Part shown: positions 26,845-51,453 of the stretch, piece after piece
How positions within the stretch are numbered: the first letter of the stretch is position 1
How the letters are laid out: every line of letters begins with the position of its first letter
DNA from: Rhodoglobus sp.
Lineage (GTDB): Bacteria > Actinomycetota > Actinomycetes > Actinomycetales > Microbacteriaceae
Assembly (NCBI GenBank): GCA_965279645.1
Contig: OZ257254.1
Coordinates: 362,781 to 426,780, forward strand
DNA length: 64,000 bases
Reading direction: 5' to 3'
The notes under the pieces: generated by a model
What the model was told of the DNA's origin: nothing
Databases searched by the model: none
The model's input: only the letters and a program-made list of their open reading frames with translations
Made by a program: the position numbers and the translations under genes

Positions 26845-27936
<1,092 letters not shown>

Positions 27937-28013: not shown

Positions 28014-28020
28014 TGGTGAC

Positions 28021-28258
28021 ATGAAACCTGTCACGAGTGCGGCAGAGCTTGAGCAGATCCTGGGGCGGCCCGAGCCGCGGGTCGCGAACAAGGCGCGAAG
28101 CACGCTGCACGCGGTCGACCGGGAGTGGTTGGCGGCGGCATCCCTCGCCTTCATGGCCACGAGCGATGCCGAGGAACCCGGGGCGCGGCGACACCCTGCG
28201 CATCAACGGGCGCGCGACGATCGTGAGCGACGCGCCATTCTTCGACCACGGTCCCTGA
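28021..28258 (+). pseudogene. Decayed pyridoxamine-5'-phosphate-oxidase-like flavoprotein gene (MSMEG_1061 type)
   Basis: Frame 1: MKPVTSAAELEQILGRPEPRVANKARSTLHAVDREWLAAASLAFMATSDA. After a +1 shift: PGRGDTLRINGRATIVSDAPFFD, then a stop inside a repeat. The middle (SPKGD..PGN) and C-terminal parts recalled for the family are absent. Confidence 0.72.
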
Positions 28259-28336
28259 GGTTCTCTACGGTCCCTGAGGTTCTCGAAGGGAACGAGCCAG
28301 TCACGGGCGTTCCCTTCGAGAACCTCAGGGAACGGG
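28248..28336. repeat. REP-like palindromic element, family A, with a partial tandem duplication
   Basis: Perfect 23-bp arms ccctgaggttctcgaagggaacg (28272-28294) and cgttcccttcgagaacctcaggg (28308-28330); 18-bp direct repeat acggtccctgaggttctc at 28248 and 28267. Confidence 0.9.
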
Positions 28337-29149
28337 TTACTTCTCGAGCACGTCTTTCGCGTACGCGGCACGAGCAGCGGGGTCACCGCCGAGGCCGATG
28401 CTGTCGCTTCCCGCGCGGTCGTCGATCCAGTCCTGCCAGCTCGTGGGCAGCGCCTTCGAGAAGCGCAGCAGCGGTCCAAGGCGCCGCGGCACGACCACCC
28501 AGAAACGCTTCTTGTCGAGCGCCCGCATGACCGCGGCCGAGACATCCGACGCCGACACCGAGCCGGTCAGTGACGGGGGAGTGATGCCCGCGCCCATGGC
28601 GGTGCGCACGAGGTTGGGGTTCACGACCGTGATGCGCACACCGGTCGTGCGCAGCTCGCGGCGCAGCGCGTCGCTGAAGGCGATGACGGCCGCCTTGGTG
28701 CCCGAGTAGACGGCAACGCCCGCAAGCGGTTTGATGCCCGTCGCGCTCGCCATGTTCACGATCGTGCCGGTGTTGCGGGCGAGCATGCGGGGCAGAATCA
28801 GGCCGGTCGCCGAGACGACGCTCGCGTAGTTGATCGCGATGATGCGCTGGGATACCTCGGGCTTCTGTTTCGCAAACGGCTCGGTGGGCATGATGCCCGC
28901 GTTGTTGATCCACAGGTCGATCGGTCCGACCTGGGACTCGACCTCGTCGATGACGGACTCGACGAGCTGCGGGTCGGTCACGTCGAGCCGCACGGCACTC
29001 GCGCCCTCGCCGAGCTCGCGGGCCGTCGCCTTCGTCGCCTCAAGGTCGAGGTCGCCGATGACGACTCGATATCCACGGGCGAGCAGGTCGGTTGCGAGCT
29101 GTTTGCCGATGCCGCGGGCGGCCCCGGTTACGACTGCGATGGGACTCAT
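28337..29149 (-). CDS. Short-chain dehydrogenase/reductase
   Basis: VVTGAARGIG, INNAG, YSGTKAA; ATG 29149 overlaps the upstream stop. Confidence 0.92.
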   Translation of the reverse strand: MSPIAVVTGAARGIGKQLATDLLARGYRVVIGDLDLEATKATARELGEGASAVRLDVTDPQLVESVIDEVESQVGPIDLWINNAGIMPTEPFAKQKPEVSQRIIAINYASVVSATGLILPRMLARNTGTIVNMASATGIKPLAGVAVYSGTKAAVIAFSDALRRELRTTGVRITVVNPNLVRTAMGAGITPPSLTGSVSASDVSAAVMRALDKKRFWVVVPRRLGPLLRFSKALPTSWQDWIDDRAGSDSIGLGGDPAARAAYAKDVLEK

Positions 29150-46552: not shown

Positions 46553-47653
46553 TTGAATAAGACGCTTGCCGCCGTAGGCGCTTCCGTGCTTGGTCTGGCC
46601 TCGGCCACCATGGTCGGTGCTCCCGCGCAGGCGGGGTTGCCGACCGCTACCGACCCGTGCACCGACATGAACGCGCAGGTAGACGCAACCGGCAAGATCA
46701 CCACGAACTGGTACCAGAACTGCGTGCCTCAGTACGGCTTGGGCAAGGCCGAGTTCAGCATCGTCGCCGATGAGGATGACCCCACCGTCGAGTTTCCCGA
46801 AGGTTTCGTGTCGCTCGAAGAGCTCGACGCCGACGCCTTCTCGACAACGCTCGACCAGGACGCGATTGATACCTACCTCAGTAGTGACTCCAGCGTTCCG
46901 ACCCTGTCGCCCATCACCCCCGTGGTCTCGTTCCTGAATGACCCCACCGTGCAGCGTTACTACGCGGTCGTTGTCGCTCCCGTCGAGTCGATCGAGTTCG
47001 CCGAGGTTCCGAGCGATGAGGCTGCAGCACAGTGCGGCCTGGGAGTCGTCGACTACAGCGGGCGGTGGCGCGCAACGTTCGGCTCGGTCGACACCACGAT
47101 CACCCAGACGGTTGGTGACGAGATCTGGAGCTACACGGTCGAGGCGCAGCCCGCACCCACCTACTTCTTCGGCACGTTCTCGAGCGGTGAGCTTGTGGGG
47201 GACTGGTGCGTTACCGACGGCACTCACACGATCACCTCCGACAACGCCGACTTCACCACAGGCGATCAGCTCTTCGGTCTCGTCTTCAACAGCCTTCCGG
47301 ATGTCGCGGGCGATGGTGTCTTCGGCAGCCTGGGCACCTTCGCCCCGGTCATCTCCGCAGCGCCTCCCGTCGACCCGCCAGTCGACCCTCCCGTAGATCC
47401 TCCGGTCGACCCTCCCGTGGATCCTCCTGTCGACCCGCCGGTAGATCCGCCTGTAGACCCGCCCGTCGACCCCCCGGTTGATCCCGACCCGCCCGTCATC
47501 GACGACGAGCCGGTTGTGCGGCAGGCACTTCCCAACACAGGCGTGAACATTGCCGAGACCGCGGTTCCGGCCGCGATCGCGGGCGGAGTCATCCTGTTGG
47601 GTGGCGGGCTCATCGCGGGCGCCGCGATCAGGCGTCGCCGCAACCGCGTCTAG
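46553..47653 (+). CDS. Secreted sortase-anchored (LPNTG) surface protein with a (VDPP)n stalk
   Basis: TTG 46553 after GGGGGA; signal peptide ending PAQA; LPNTG followed by a TM helix and an RRRRNRV tail. Confidence 0.85.
   Translation: MNKTLAAVGASVLGLASATMVGAPAQAGLPTATDPCTDMNAQVDATGKITTNWYQNCVPQYGLGKAEFSIVADEDDPTVEFPEGFVSLEELDADAFSTTLDQDAIDTYLSSDSSVPTLSPITPVVSFLNDPTVQRYYAVVVAPVESIEFAEVPSDEAAAQCGLGVVDYSGRWRATFGSVDTTITQTVGDEIWSYTVEAQPAPTYFFGTFSSGELVGDWCVTDGTHTITSDNADFTTGDQLFGLVFNSLPDVAGDGVFGSLGTFAPVISAAPPVDPPVDPPVDPPVDPPVDPPVDPPVDPPVDPPVDPPVDPDPPVIDDEPVVRQALPNTGVNIAETAVPAAIAGGVILLGGGLIAGAAIRRRRNRV
47369..47488 (+). repeat. Coding 12-bp repeat: VDPP x9 plus VDPD
   Basis: Ten units read directly; synonymous codons differ between almost all units. 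Confidence 0.95.
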
Positions 47654-49380
47654 TCGTCGTCAGTCTTGCGATGCCGGGGGATCTCTTCCCCGGTGACCGC
47701 ATCGAGCGCGGTTTGCCCCTCGGGCAGGTTCGACAGGTCGGGCGCTATCACCTCGGGCATGCGGCCTGAGTCGGGCAGGCCGAAGGTGGCCTGACGCCCG
47801 AGTCCCGGCGCAAGCACGAGATCGTCGGACCGCTTGGTGAGCGTTTTGCCCCTGAAGAAGTCGGGCTGGCGGATCGCCCAGATGCCCATGAGCACAGCGC
47901 CGATCACGAGGGCGCCGATTCCCACGACGGCGGTTGCCCCGATCCCGAAGATCGTGATGTTGTTGCCGTCGCTGTCGACGAGCCAATCGGGGGTCGCGAA
48001 CTGCACGAGCCCGTATCCAAACACGGCCGCGAGCATGAGCCCGCCCGCGAGCGGGAAGAGCCCGCGCATGATGAAGTTGCGGAACGACGAGGTGAGCGTT
48101 TTGCGGTAGTACCAGACGCATGCGAAGCCGGTCAGCCCGTAGTAGAACGCGATCATCAGGCCGATGGACCCGATGAGAGCGCTCAGCAGGTCGGGGCTGA
48201 TGAGTGTGAAGATCAGGTAGAAGGCGGCCGAGACGATTCCCATGCCGATGGTCGACCAGGTCGGCGTGAGGAACTTCGGGTGGATGCGCGCGAACTTGGC
48301 CGGCACAGCCTTGTAGACGGCCATCGAGAGGGTGGTGCGCGCGGTCGGCAGAATCGTTGTCTGGGTGGATGCAGAAGCCGAGGTCAGGATCGAGGCGGCG
48401 AGCAACAGCAGGAAGATGTGCCCGATCACGCTGTCACCGAACAGCTCAGGACCAATGGCCGAGAACACGTCATCCGCGTTGCCTTCTGCGCCAAGCCCGA
48501 TGCCCTCGGTGCCGACGCCCGCGAACGAGACGGCGGCGACGGTCACGAGCGTGTACGTCACGAGCAGCAGCACCGTGCTGAGGATGGCGGCACGCCCGGG
48601 CGTCTTGGCCGGGTCATCCGATTCCTCGTTGACGCTCACGGCGGTGTCCCATCCCCAGTAGATGAAGATCGCGGTGAGCATGGCGGGAGCGATGATCGAG
48701 CCGAAGTCGAGGGTGAACGGGTTGAACCAGTCGAGGCTCGGCATGATGGAGTAGCTCTCGGCAGTGCCCGAGTACACGCGCACGAGGGCGAAGACGGCAA
48801 ACAGGATGAGCACGACCACCTCGACACTCAGCAGCACGTACTGCAGCCGGGCCGAGATCTCGATACCGCGGTAGCAGATGTAGGTCATGATCGCGATCCA
48901 GGCGAGGCCGGCCACTGTCGACCACAGGGTGCTGTCGGCGAGTTCCGCGACGCCGGGAACGCCCAGCTGTCCCACGAAGGTAAACGAGTACGAGCCAGCG
49001 ATCTGGGCGAGGTTGGCCATGACGATCACGTCGGCGGCGATGATGCCCCAGCCGCCCATCCACCCGGTGATCGGGCCGAACGCGCGGGATGCCCAGGTGA
49101 ACGTGGTGCCGCAGTCGGGCTCGGCCTTGTTGAGCTCCTGGTAGGCGACCGCGATGAGGTACATGGGAATGAACGCGAGCAGCACGATGCCGGGGGCCTT
49201 CACTCCTGCGAGGAGGGCGCCACCGCTCGCGACGATGAAACCGAGGCTCGCCGCGAGACTGTACGCGGGGGCGGTAGACGCGACGCCCACCACCACGCTC
49301 GAGAGCAGCCCGAGGGCTCCGCCCTTGAGCCCTTTGCCATCTACTGCTCCGCCGCTGGCCTGAGTTACGGGTGTTGACAT
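47650..49380 (-). CDS. APC-family amino acid/polyamine permease
   Basis: VASTAPAYSLAASLG, PDCGTTFTWASRAFG, IYWGWDTA..VNEE; multi-TM. True start is ATG 49380. Confidence 0.92.
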   Translation of the reverse strand: MSTPVTQASGGAVDGKGLKGGALGLLSSVVVGVASTAPAYSLAASLGFIVASGGALLAGVKAPGIVLLAFIPMYLIAVAYQELNKAEPDCGTTFTWASRAFGPITGWMGGWGIIAADVIVMANLAQIAGSYSFTFVGQLGVPGVAELADSTLWSTVAGLAWIAIMTYICYRGIEISARLQYVLLSVEVVVLILFAVFALVRVYSGTAESYSIMPSLDWFNPFTLDFGSIIAPAMLTAIFIYWGWDTAVSVNEESDDPAKTPGRAAILSTVLLLVTYTLVTVAAVSFAGVGTEGIGLGAEGNADDVFSAIGPELFGDSVIGHIFLLLLAASILTSASASTQTTILPTARTTLSMAVYKAVPAKFARIHPKFLTPTWSTIGMGIVSAAFYLIFTLISPDLLSALIGSIGLMIAFYYGLTGFACVWYYRKTLTSSFRNFIMRGLFPLAGGLMLAAVFGYGLVQFATPDWLVDSDGNNITIFGIGATAVVGIGALVIGAVLMGIWAIRQPDFFRGKTLTKRSDDLVLAPGLGRQATFGLPDSGRMPEVIAPDLSNLPEGQTALDAVTGEEIPRHRKTDDD

Positions 49381-49506
49381 GGTTTCCGCCTTCGTTGCCG
49401 TGGCCCCGGAGGGTGCGGTGCCCTGAGGTGTGAGGCTGGAAAATCTACTCCCGCACACGGCCCGAGAACAATGAGTATACCCAACTGACCGCCGTAGGAT
49501 CGGCTC

Positions 49507-50655
49507 ATGACCAAGACAGCGGTGCACTTCGGGGCTGGGAATATTGGGCGTGGCTTCGTCGCGCAGTTTTTGCACGAAAGCGGGTACGAAGTCGTCTTTG
49601 CCGACGTGAGCGAAGAGCTCATTGGTGCCTTGCAGAAACAGCCGAGCTACCTGGTGATCGAGGTCGGCGAAGGAGCCGTCACCAAGATCGTCGACAACTA
49701 CCGCGCGATCAACTCGAAGAGTCACGAGGCCGACGTCATAGCGGCCATCGCATCGGCCGATGTCGTCACGACCGCGGTCGGCGCGCGCATCCTGCAGTTT
49801 GTTGCGCCCGTAATCGCGAAGGGACTTGCGGCTCGTGAGAACAGCGAGCCGCTCGTGGTGATCGCCTGCGAGAACGCGATCGGCGGCACCGACATGCTTG
49901 CTGCTGAGGTGCGCAAGCACGACCCCGCGACGAACGCGATCTTCGCGAACTGTGCGATCGACCGCATCGTGCCCGAGCAGTCGGGTGGGCTGGATGTCAC
50001 GATCGAGTCGTTTTTTGAGTGGGTCGTAGACAAGTCCCCGTTCCCTGAGGCGCTCGAAGGGAGCGGCAAGCAACTGCCCGACATCTACGGCATCACCTGG
50101 GTCGACGACCTCGAGCCATTCATCGAGCGCAAGCTCTTCACCGTCAACACGGCGCACGCAGCGGCGGCCTACCACGGCATCGACCGTGGCTGGGTCTCGA
50201 TTCGTGAGGCGCTCGCGACTCCCGAGCTGCAGGCCGAGATCCGCGCCGTGCTCGCCGAGACCAAAGAACTGCTCGTGGTCAAGCACGGCTTCGATCCCGA
50301 CGAACAGCAGGCCTACATCGAGAAGACGCTCAAGCGCATTTCGAACCCCGCCTTGCCCGACACGTGTGAGCGCGTCGGCCGCGGTCCATTGCGCAAGCTG
50401 TCGCGTCACGAGCGGTTCATTGGTCCCGCGGCAGAGCTCGCCGAGCGCGGCCTTGAGGTGTGGAACCTGCTCAACGCTGTCGGAGCAGCGCTTCGGTTCG
50501 ATGTCGAAGAAGATGCCGAGAGCGTAGAACTGCAGGCGTTGCTCTCGGGCGGGGCGCCGGCGGATGCCCTGGCCGAGACCATCACGGGACTTGAGCCGAG
50601 TCATCCACTCTTCCCGTATGTTGTCGAGGTCATCGAGCTGCGACTGAATCGATGA
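49507..50655 (+). CDS. mtlD: Mannitol-1-phosphate 5-dehydrogenase
   Basis: AVHFGAGNIGRGF, VTTAVG, IACEN, IDRIVP, ERKLFTVNTAHA, RVGRGPLRKLS..ERFIGP. Confidence 0.95.
   Translation: MTKTAVHFGAGNIGRGFVAQFLHESGYEVVFADVSEELIGALQKQPSYLVIEVGEGAVTKIVDNYRAINSKSHEADVIAAIASADVVTTAVGARILQFVAPVIAKGLAARENSEPLVVIACENAIGGTDMLAAEVRKHDPATNAIFANCAIDRIVPEQSGGLDVTIESFFEWVVDKSPFPEALEGSGKQLPDIYGITWVDDLEPFIERKLFTVNTAHAAAAYHGIDRGWVSIREALATPELQAEIRAVLAETKELLVVKHGFDPDEQQAYIEKTLKRISNPALPDTCERVGRGPLRKLSRHERFIGPAAELAERGLEVWNLLNAVGAALRFDVEEDAESVELQALLSGGAPADALAETITGLEPSHPLFPYVVEVIELRLNR
50037..50062 (+). repeat. Family A REP half-site inside mtlD (in frame, PFPEALEG)
   Basis: 24/26 identical to the reverse complement of 28311-28336. 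Confidence 0.85.
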
Positions 50656-51072: not shown

Positions 51073-51453
51073 ATGACTGACACCACGTTCCCCGAGGCTC
51101 TCGAAGGGAAAAGCCCGAGAAGCTACGGCTTTCTATCCCTCACGATCGCGGCGGCGTTCGGCCTGTTTTTTGCCTACGACCTGTGGGAGGCGGTCTCGAC
51201 CCTCATCGCCCTTCCCCAGTTCTATTCGGCCTTCGGCCTCGACGCCTCCTACATTCCGTGGTGGCTGCTGTGGCTCGGTGTGCTGATTCCCCCCGTGCTG
51301 TACGGGCTGGCGCTGCTGATCGGTCGCAAGCAGGGCGTGCTTGCGCGCACCCTCATCCTTCTCGTGGGTCTCGCGTTGTCGGCGGCACTCAGCCTCAGCG
51401 CGATCGCGCTCGAGCAGGTGCTGCGGCCCGAGTTGATCGCCGTTATCGGTTAG
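51073..51453 (+). CDS. Hypothetical membrane protein
   Basis: About 3 TMs (FAYDLWEAV); starts 1 nt after the previous stop. Confidence 0.75.
   Translation: MTDTTFPEALEGKSPRSYGFLSLTIAAAFGLFFAYDLWEAVSTLIALPQFYSAFGLDASYIPWWLLWLGVLIPPVLYGLALLIGRKQGVLARTLILLVGLALSAALSLSAIALEQVLRPELIAVIG
51086..51110 (+). repeat. Family A REP half-site inside the 51073 gene (in frame, FPEALEG)
   Basis: cgttccccgaggctctcgaagggaa, 23/25 identical to the family A arm. Confidence 0.85.

Follow-up and report, generated by a model that had tools for sequence, protein, structure and literature searches.

Ogata and colleagues reportedly described, in 2000 and 2002, Rickettsia palindromic elements (RPEs) that lie in-frame in conserved protein-coding genes. 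In-frame insertions are also known for MITEs such as Correia, ERIC and Nezha, which are 70–300 bp long and bear terminal inverted repeats and target-site duplications.

In-frame palindromic repeats comprise Rickettsia RPEs as well as GTAG/CGTC REPs in several Proteobacteria and Opitutus (Di Nocera et al. 2013, PMC3733652). RPE-4 and RPE-6 carry the CGTC tag, and some REP families are inserted within pre-existing palindromes; the main text of that paper contains no mention of Actinobacteria (PMC3733652).

Here we followed up a first-pass annotation that had noted a REP-derived peptide, inserted in-frame, in the mannitol-1-phosphate dehydrogenase gene mtlD of the window (the whole 64-kb stretch of DNA that was analyzed). 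Taking the evidence jointly, we are fairly confident that the segment in mtlD derives from a small hairpin repeat of REP-like type that was copied and fixed in-frame in a flexible loop; the peptide it encodes is most likely a passenger, and homology-guided capture is the favored, plausible route of acquisition.

An in-frame hairpin unit in mtlD

The relevant features of the window are the following.

28249..28270, plus strand: partial third unit, CGGTCCCTGAGGTTCTCTACGG (inverted repeat I5; three-frame translation)
28268..28294, plus strand: intergenic hairpin unit, left palindrome arm (inverted repeat I1, 27 nt, 96% complementary; pattern match)
28308..28334, minus strand: intergenic hairpin unit, right arm, CGTTCCCTGAGGTTCTCGAAGGGAACG on the minus strand (inverted repeat I1; pattern match)
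49507..50655, plus strand: mtlD, mannitol-1-phosphate 5-dehydrogenase, 382 aa, the host gene (ORF, Pfam, PDB, AF2 fold)
50038..50066, plus strand: complete hairpin unit in mtlD, CCGTTCCCTGAGGCGCTCGAAGGGAGCGG (RNA fold; pattern match at 50042–50062)
50044..50061, plus strand: the inserted DNA proper, 18 nt, encoding P180-E-A-L-E-G185 (comparison with insert-free orthologues)
51086..51111, plus strand: unit read as TFPEALEGK within the N-terminal tail of a membrane protein that is small and conserved (pattern match, 1 mismatch)

A pattern search of the 64-kb window with TCCCTGAGGNNCTCGAAGGGA, allowing at most three mismatches, returned four sites, at 28271–28291 (+), 28311–28331 (−), 50042–50062 (+) and 51089–51109 (+), with 0.02 matches expected; four matches were reached in none of 100 dinucleotide-preserving shuffles. 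The site in mtlD, 50042–50062 (TCCCTGAGGCGCTCGAAGGGA), matches both arms of the intergenic palindrome (28268–28334) and the copy at 51089–51109. The cluster near 28.3 kb lies between a decayed PNPOx-like gene, whose reading frame is ended by a TGA in the partial unit, and a convergent SDR gene ending at 28337, whose stop is adjoined by the right arm. In the ORF of the small membrane protein (51073..51453), the unit takes the place at which orthologues have a different, longer tail, SIADSENPIEEIVADDAREAKRGRYGW. We also noted that a loose, 13-nt version of the core occurs by chance in native coding sequence, namely at residue 236 of the mtlD product at one other locus (L144) and at window positions 27541 and 55355.

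An identity of 24/26 between positions 50037–50062 and one arm of the palindrome had been claimed; this count is right, as the 26-mer (cccgttccctgaggcgctcgaaggga) and the reverse complement of 28311–28336 (cccgttccctgaggttctcgaaggga) differ at two loop bases only. The segment is also correctly read as PFPEALEG inside the 382-aa ORF. Not all of the 26-nt match is inserted DNA, however: its first 7 nt (CCCGTTC) are the invariant host Pro-Phe codons, which are present in insert-free orthologues too, and the insertion itself covers the 18 nt from 50044 to 50061. The site thus compares as CCG TTC AAC GGC (empty) vs CCG TTC [CCT GAG GCN CTC GAA GGG] A(A/G)C GGC (filled). The 18-nt insert is identical to the intergenic arms at 16 of its 18 positions and is accompanied by one extra codon downstream, so that the net gain in the window MtlD amounts to seven residues. 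About seven extra residues had been proposed relative to E. coli MtlD, and alignment with the Shigella enzyme (PDB 3h2z) bears this out with a seven-residue gap (vdkspfpealegsgkqlpdiyg in the window vs vdktqfkga-------lpnipg; fuller 3h2z row, ewivdktqfkga-------lpnipg). The codons CCT, GAA and GGG, rare and atypical of mtlD usage, are kept in the window insert. Together with its flanks (50038..50066), the insert folds into a hairpin with a 9-bp outer stem, partly made of the host Pro-Phe codons, and a 3-bp inner stem (−16.4 kcal/mol). We assign the insert to the same repeat family as the intergenic units. It is not an assembly artefact, since four sequencing runs of the organism contain all sampled 31-mers and the insert recurs, altered only by one synonymous substitution (50052, G>T), on contigs of two unrelated metagenome projects (X5 and X6).

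The host protein contains both the N- and C-terminal Mannitol_dh Pfam domains (PF01232 and PF08125; E 2e-45 and 9e-31, respectively). It matches 3h2z in the PDB (E 3e-76), with 5jnm also matching by sequence and fold. Its nearest homologues with a genus name belong to Antiquaquibacter, Schumannella, Salinibacterium and Rhodoglobus, which suggests that the window derives from a member of the Microbacteriaceae. Residues K209, N214 and H217, invariant among 66 homologues, are what we take to be the catalytic Lys/Asn/His of the long-chain mannitol dehydrogenase family, by equivalence from P. fluorescens M2DH. By its Mannitol_dh Rossmann and C-terminal domains and the conserved Lys/Asn/His, the protein is a mannitol-1-phosphate 5-dehydrogenase. 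An AlphaFold2 model built on the 66 homologues (mean pLDDT 87.6, pTM 0.85) superposes on 3h2z with a TM score of 0.85. In this model, residues 176–195 form a coil between strands 171–175 and 196–199, and the block 181–190 has a pLDDT of 66, the second lowest among ten-residue blocks; the first-pass annotation had expected a surface loop, and a low-pLDDT coil between two strands is indeed what is predicted. As the first Pfam domain ends at residue 180 and the second starts at 201, the model places the PEALEG insert in the loop at which the Rossmann domain meets the C-terminal domain.

Distribution and recurrence at the mtlD site

We compared about 200 Microbacteriaceae orthologues of MtlD, including the 120 closest homologues at 80–100% identity, and collected mtlD DNA from four loci by exact-protein look-up and from 74 by a metagenome scan, about 45 of which were readable at the insert site. 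In the following, W denotes the window mtlD, L numbers denote other loci and P numbers homologous proteins. The great majority of the 120 closest homologues read F-xGx-TPDIYG, without an insert, and are 374–376 aa long; inserts of the PEA..EG type were found only in P0001–P0006, P0028 and P0030. MtlD of E. coli/Shigella and of S. aureus likewise lacks the insert, as do most orthologues within the Microbacteriaceae (PF-xGx-TP). A gap in relatives had been predicted for such an alignment and was found in most, the insert being confined to close relatives. The result named beforehand as refuting, the segment in orthologues from genomes that lack the repeat, was not encountered among the MtlD sequences compared, which cover the orthologue half of that test. 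We conclude, from these alignments, that the mtlD insert is derived rather than ancestral.

The empty site and the alleles carrying inserts of the window type read as follows.

Empty site, example: CCG TTC AAC GGC TCG ACG CCC
W: CCG TTC CCT GAG GCG CTC GAA GGG AGC GGC AAG CAA CTG CCC (PEALEG + SGKQ)
L001: CCG TTC CCT GAG GCC CTC GAA GGG AAC GGC (PEALEG + NG)
L125: CCT GAG GCG CCG GAG GGG GGC AAG CAG (PEAPEG + GKQ)
L134: CCC GAG GGT CCG GAG GGC AAG CAG (PEGPEG + KQ)

The GKQ that follows the insert is common to W, L125 and L134, and we therefore treated these three as one event. In L125 and L134, CCT, GAA and GGG have been swapped for GC3-rich codons and the DNA no longer folds into a hairpin, with loop length kept; this pattern has the look expected of decay after insertion. 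The hairpin is near-intact in both W and L001, the genes of which are 79% identical in nucleotides and 60% at third codon positions. In a bootstrapped neighbor-joining tree of 339 codon columns of mtlD, with the loop masked, carriers of the window insert type are interspersed, at moderate support, with sequences that have no insert; L125, for example, groups with the insert-free L127/L129 (80% bootstrap). Because of this scatter, a single origin of the window insert type needs several precise losses or recombination. We nevertheless treat this type as having a single origin followed by decay, a reading under which losses and recombination look alike.

Three further types of insert occupy the same codon boundary in other lineages, each about 18 nt in size.

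L002/L178: TCCCTGAGCTCGTCGAAGGG, forward, in a different frame (RSLSSSKG)
L140/L141: GCTTCGAGCGCCTCAGCG, reverse (ASSASA)
L128, L132 and L133: GTTTCG(A/G/T)C(C/A)AGCTCAAC, also given as GTTTCGACCAGCTCAAC, reverse (VS(T/A/S)SST)

The L140/L141 insert contains a 15-nt core that is the exact reverse complement of the window core. In the tree, L002 is sister to the insert-free L136 (99% bootstrap) and L140 to the insert-free L161 (100%); L132/L133 form a clade of their own (100%), and L128 is placed inside the window clade. Elsewhere in mtlD, family cores were not found, except for one chance match in native sequence. Counted in this way, the alleles point to at least four independent hairpin insertions at one mtlD site, in both orientations and in different frames. 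The same loop also holds unrelated indels: P0086 and P0061/72/82 have tandem duplications, and P0077 has gained a Gly-rich segment.

The repeat family and its copies in other proteins

The unit measures about 25–29 nt and consists of a core, YCCCTGAG-N4-TCGAAGGGR, framed by outer stem bases that are lineage-specific (here CGTTCCC..GGGAACG). RNA folding yields an outer stem (NNTCCC/GGGANN), a tandem G·A internal loop and a short, G-C-closed apex. Among the matches listed, the core is nearly invariant and is found in many bacterial phyla and in viral contigs. In a sample of 153 units across all phyla, drawn from these matches, the stem continues beyond TCCC..GGGA by at least 1 bp in 103 (67%) and by at least 2 bp in 43%, compared to 25% and 6% by chance; the additional pairs vary by lineage (GG..CC, GT..AC, GC..GC), the stem extensions thus covarying. 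Units occur as singles, inverted pairs and arrays, with several per 8-kb locus in related genera. Among the matches listed, sampled units lie between convergent genes in 23 cases, between co-directional genes in 18 and between divergent genes in seven, and in the co-directional spacers their orientation is unbiased (10 vs 8). Enrichment between convergent genes and the lack of an orientation bias amount to REP-like behavior.

The designation as REP-derived stands in so far as the insert is a copy of a hairpin repeat family that is REP-like, the unit being, as a REP is, a short imperfect palindrome that forms a stem-loop. It does not stand in the strict sense, as the GTAG/CGTC tag is absent and a RAYT was not found near the sampled copies. 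GTAG/CGTC tags within 9 nt of 149 units were no more common than in control windows 30 nt away. An all-against-all BLASTP comparison of the ORFs from 120 sampled 8-kb loci revealed no transposase-like ORF family that recurs across taxa near the units and no RAYT near the sampled copies. Searches for known relatives were likewise negative: at Rfam gathering thresholds, the 64-kb window yielded only a tRNA; BLAST of the unit gave only weak matches, inside ORFs, in isolate phages and no similarity in E. coli genomes; and a literature search on the core sequence, the encoded peptides and REP/RAYT in Microbacteriaceae turned up nothing relevant. In Rfam E-value searches with 28150–28450 and eight loci from various phyla, sub-threshold matches to miRNA/sRNA families were rejected as chance matches; examples such as Sso133 and lin-4 share UCCCUGAG or CUCGAAGGGA with the unit.

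A search for repeat-encoded peptides in other proteins, also proposed at the outset, gave positive results at the N-terminus of ORF 51073 (FPEALEG) and, in other Microbacteriaceae, for KdpB and a RhaD-like enzyme. Relative to its E. coli counterpart (5mrw_B), the KdpB encoded by a Microbacterium MAG (L079) is longer by 59 residues between PLVVA and GRVLGVI, and the DNA for this stretch consists of four hairpin units in alternating orientation; the loop normally comprises 10 residues (120 homologues). Hairpin-type peptides in different frames (LRQAQGP, SEPVEGA, PSTSSGPSTGSGT) are seen in the KdpB loop of P0128, P0121, P0127 and P0140. In the RhaD-like aldolase/dehydrogenase, an empty allele, CAC GCG ACG CCC GAG TCG CCG (L319), compares with a filled one, CAC GCC GTC CCT TCG ACA GGC TCA GGG ACC GGG AGC CCG (L096), which is 18 nt longer in all; the unit is not a clean insertion here but stands in place of about 12 nt of host DNA. 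A different subfamily (L320) bears a hairpin in the same place, the stem of which differs by fully compensatory changes (GTCCCT/AGGGAC in L096 vs GTGGTC/GACCAC in L320). The PDB offered no structure for the aldolase part of the RhaD-like protein, and homologues were compared instead.

Among the matches listed, 84 units in high-GC loci have an exact core. Most of these are intergenic, and four lie inside recognizable genes, i.e. L001 mtlD, L079 KdpB, L096 RhaD-like and, as a candidate, L068 Mfd. These comparisons show that insertion recurs both at the mtlD loop and at loops of other proteins. L068 (Mfd, LPSMNSGTGS) and L064 are candidate coding inserts; L036 (Agreia) was rejected as one, since its hairpins form an intergenic cluster, between acetyltransferase and permease genes, through which the frame happens to read.

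Origin of the insert and comparison with known systems

We suggest that the apical 18 nt of a unit were fixed in-frame in mtlD in an ancestor common to a few close relatives. The unit would have landed directly after the invariant Pro-Phe codons, in the loop between two β strands, and could have added PEALEG (seven residues net) without disturbing the fold or the presumed catalytic residues; most likely, the peptide is a tolerated passenger. With five of its six reading frames open, the unit can persist as an in-frame copy wherever a loop is permissive. The empty site, CCG TTC AAC GGC, contains both outer-stem halves, CGTTC and AACG, of the canonical unit CGTTCCC..GGGAACG, which is seen independently at 28308–28334, and joining the ancestral CCGTTCAACGGC with the 18 nt CCTGAGGCCCTCGAAGGG gives the exact L001 sequence. 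The target site might thus have resembled a collapsed copy of the unit, and homology or the palindrome might have guided template switching or gene conversion with a copy elsewhere in the genome as donor. We favor capture over cut-and-paste transposition because the empty site already has both outer-stem halves, and consider homology- or palindrome-guided capture of the hairpin plausible; for the other three mtlD insert types, this microhomology argument is partly post hoc. The idea of a target palindrome echoes the REP families found inside pre-existing palindromes, which provide a precedent for capture (PMC3733652). A target-site duplication was not seen in the empty/filled comparisons for mtlD and the RhaD-like gene, and these analyses identified no mobilizing enzyme or donor copy.

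It is a real possibility, if not a likely one, that selection acted only as a filter, hairpins inserting frequently and at random, with no site preference, and survivors being seen in a few permissive loops. KdpB and the RhaD-like enzyme, each with several different hairpin inserts in one loop, fit such a scheme, as do the unrelated indels in the mtlD loop. However, for about 10 nt of a 3-Mb genome to be struck at least four times, implausibly many random insertions would be needed, and units are few in relatives of the window organism (at most one or two hairpin-like units per locus in some 80 mtlD loci, the longest spanning 21 kb). The match of the empty mtlD site to the collapsed outer stem also speaks against random insertion.

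The near-intact hairpins of W and L001 and the compensatory changes between L096 and L320 hint that the hairpin is maintained by selection or conversion rather than being a neutral passenger. We regard it as unlikely, though, that all elements of a more far-reaching proposal hold together, namely that the core CCCTGAG-N4-TCGAAGGG defines a distinct, unnamed selfish or functional class of stem-loops that moves by templated copying and is maintained as a hairpin in coding sequence. Under this proposal, the apical ~18 nt would be copied into sites resembling a collapsed stem, and the same protein loops could thereby be colonized repeatedly and in either orientation; if true, such a class would be a general source of lineage-specific loop peptides.

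Alternatively, the hairpin might be kept as a nucleic-acid element, be it an mRNA structure that makes ribosomes slow down between the domains or a site to which a conserved host factor binds, with the peptide as a by-product. The at least four acquisitions at the same inter-domain loop are in line with this idea, as are the persistence of the hairpin in W and L001 despite 79% gene-wide identity, the restriction of differences between two metagenomic strains to a synonymous loop change, and the presence of fully compensatory stem changes inside a coding region; moreover, the near-invariance of the core across phyla and viral contigs, among the matches listed, suggests a conserved partner. Nevertheless, we deem the idea quite unlikely, given that L125 and L134 lack the hairpin yet have the same loop length, that most orthologues have no hairpin, that orientation in co-directional spacers is unbiased, that no Rfam family matches and that fold z-scores are unremarkable (−1.45 for W). 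Finally, it is extremely improbable that the similarity is coincidental or that MtlD had the loop peptide ancestrally, with losses elsewhere: although conserved host codons account for the first 7 nt of the match and the loose 13-nt core arises by chance in native coding sequence, the expectation for the 21-mer is 0.02, the insert is missing from two solved MtlD structures and most close orthologues, CCT, GAA and GGG are atypical for the gene, the same spot in other lineages holds the family in other frames and orientations, and the distribution among orthologues contradicts such an origin.

On the favored reading, a captured hairpin with a passenger peptide, conserved enzymes can gain new peptide segments from palindromic repeats not only in Rickettsia and a few Proteobacteria but also in free-living, high-GC Actinomycetota. 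The inserts account for length differences of 6–7, and up to about 60, residues among orthologues, and for the recurrent peptides PE(A/P/L)(L/V)EG, SLS(L/S)SKG, PFD(K/R)LR and PST(G/S)SG in predicted proteins. At the mtlD, KdpB and RhaD-like loci, single loops provide natural allelic series, from empty through freshly filled to decayed, that are useful for asking how hairpins move and whether selection sees the hairpin or the peptide.

Among known systems, Rickettsia RPEs resemble the mtlD unit in being palindromic and in-frame and in adding short peptides at permissive positions of host proteins that stay functional. However, RPE-1 is about 100–150 bp long and RPEs are restricted to Rickettsia, while the mtlD unit has 25–29 nt, with an 18-nt net insert, occurs in Actinomycetota, lacks the tag and has a core found across phyla (among the matches listed). 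By size, host phylum and the missing CGTC tag, the unit is unlikely to be an RPE, and the likeness would lie in the way of working. GTAG/CGTC REPs share with the unit a short stem-loop, a mostly intergenic location, enrichment between convergent genes, an organization as singles, inverted dimers or clusters, and some copies inside ORFs, but the unit shows no enriched tetranucleotide and, near sampled copies, no RAYT. As with E. coli REP/BIME, units form alternating clusters (window 28249–28334; the four units in L079 KdpB; tandem arrays in L045), yet E. coli REPs differ in sequence, are RAYT-associated and are essentially extragenic. MITEs, too, are small, non-autonomous repeats readable as coding sequence; the unit, with less than 30 nt and neither terminal inverted repeats nor a target-site duplication seen, falls outside that class.

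The first-pass annotation had inferred a process that adds short loop peptides to proteins in this lineage. Such a process is supported in Microbacteriaceae but is not specific to the lineage, intragenic REPs and RPEs having been described (PMC3733652). In-frame palindromic repeats are thus already known; of more interest may prove to be the repeated use of the same loops with hairpins of either orientation, a core that lacks the tag yet spans phyla, and the hints of hairpin maintenance inside coding sequence.

A conserved core in many phyla

Among the matches listed from a scan of genomes (L005-L124) and a scan of viral sequences (L199-L318), the hairpin core CCCTGAGC[CT]TGTCGAAGGG is near-invariant over many phyla, as is the variant CCCTGAGG-NNC-TCGAAGGG. 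The carriers among these matches include Microbacteriaceae, Aeromicrobium, Bacteroidota, Treponema, Calditrichota and Chloroflexota, together with Planctomycetota, Chlamydiales, Marinomonas, Methylotenera, Thiomargarita and one CPR bacterium, and the core-bearing loci listed span a GC content of 30 to 74%. In the viral scan, the core is present on at least 120 contigs. No matching entry was found among Rfam families or in the literature.

Variable stems and tandem arrays

The outer stem was compared between units of the same genome at two loci, L140 and L141, in which mtlD also carries an insert.

L140:8347-8359 and L141:10779-10791, intergenic hairpin unit, outer stem GTCAT-TGAGGCTCTCGAA-ATGAC

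In both genomes, the stem of the mtlD insert (CGC..GCG) differs from that of this intergenic unit; the outer stems are therefore variable inside one genome, with the 13-nt apex constant. Units also occur in arrays, with at least 11 in tandem at a period of 23 nt in Microbacterium algihabitans (L045:100-450), and with periods of 33 and 37 nt in two Agromyces loci (L102 and L116).

Hairpins within enzyme genes

In the KdpB gene of a Microbacterium MAG, four alternating hairpin units form a 59-residue in-frame insert (L079:4210-4385), and the N-terminal tail of the protein (HQSAPEPVEGCDAPS) contains one further unit. A RhaD-like aldolase/SDR loop was found in three states.

L096:3850-3945, minus strand, filled allele
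L319:1717-1770, empty allele
L320:1329-1400, allele of an alternative subfamily

Between the two filled alleles, L096 and L320, the stem differences are fully compensatory, within coding sequence.

Two MtlD orthologues bear other insertions, a 20-residue insert (GPTPAGSDESRSGLAAVQVG) at residue ~56 (L131) and a 27-residue tandem duplication at residue ~62 (L166), neither of which clearly belongs to the hairpin family.

The mtlD region and the intergenic cluster

Beside the intergenic cluster, a PNPOx-like gene (28020-28262) appears to carry a frameshift or internal deletion, with one frame giving MKPVT..MATSDAEE and a second frame giving PGRGDTLRINGRATIVSDAPFFDHGP*; the gene's TGA stop falls within a partial hairpin unit (28249-28270). 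A further ORF overlaps mtlD.

47650-50604, minus strand, 984-aa ORF, 5' half antisense to mtlD
51073-51132 (and L004:11519-11610), hypervariable N-terminal tail of a small membrane protein downstream of mtlD

Only in its 3' part, starting around MSTPVTQASGG, does the ORF resemble a genuine amino-acid permease; the remainder is an open antisense frame usual for high-GC DNA. The small-protein tail reads TFPEALEGK in the window, TPEATPTPEAPTPEAFEGP with a degenerate hairpin unit CTCCTGAGGCCTTCGAAGGGCC in Antiquaquibacter soli, and SIADSENPIEEIVADDAREAKRG in most relatives. In some lineages, the first small membrane protein 3' of mtlD has VEPVET/VEPVS repeats along its N-terminal tail (L002:5562-5984; 5' parts of L187, L188 and L194), and the underlying DNA consists of GAGCCTGTCGAAAC-type, hairpin-family words.

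Within the mtlD insert, a synonymous 50052 G>T change (GCG to GCT) was found on metagenome contigs of two unrelated studies, of a factory (X5) and of groundwater (X6). With this change, the loop of the insert matches that of the 51089-51109 copy exactly.
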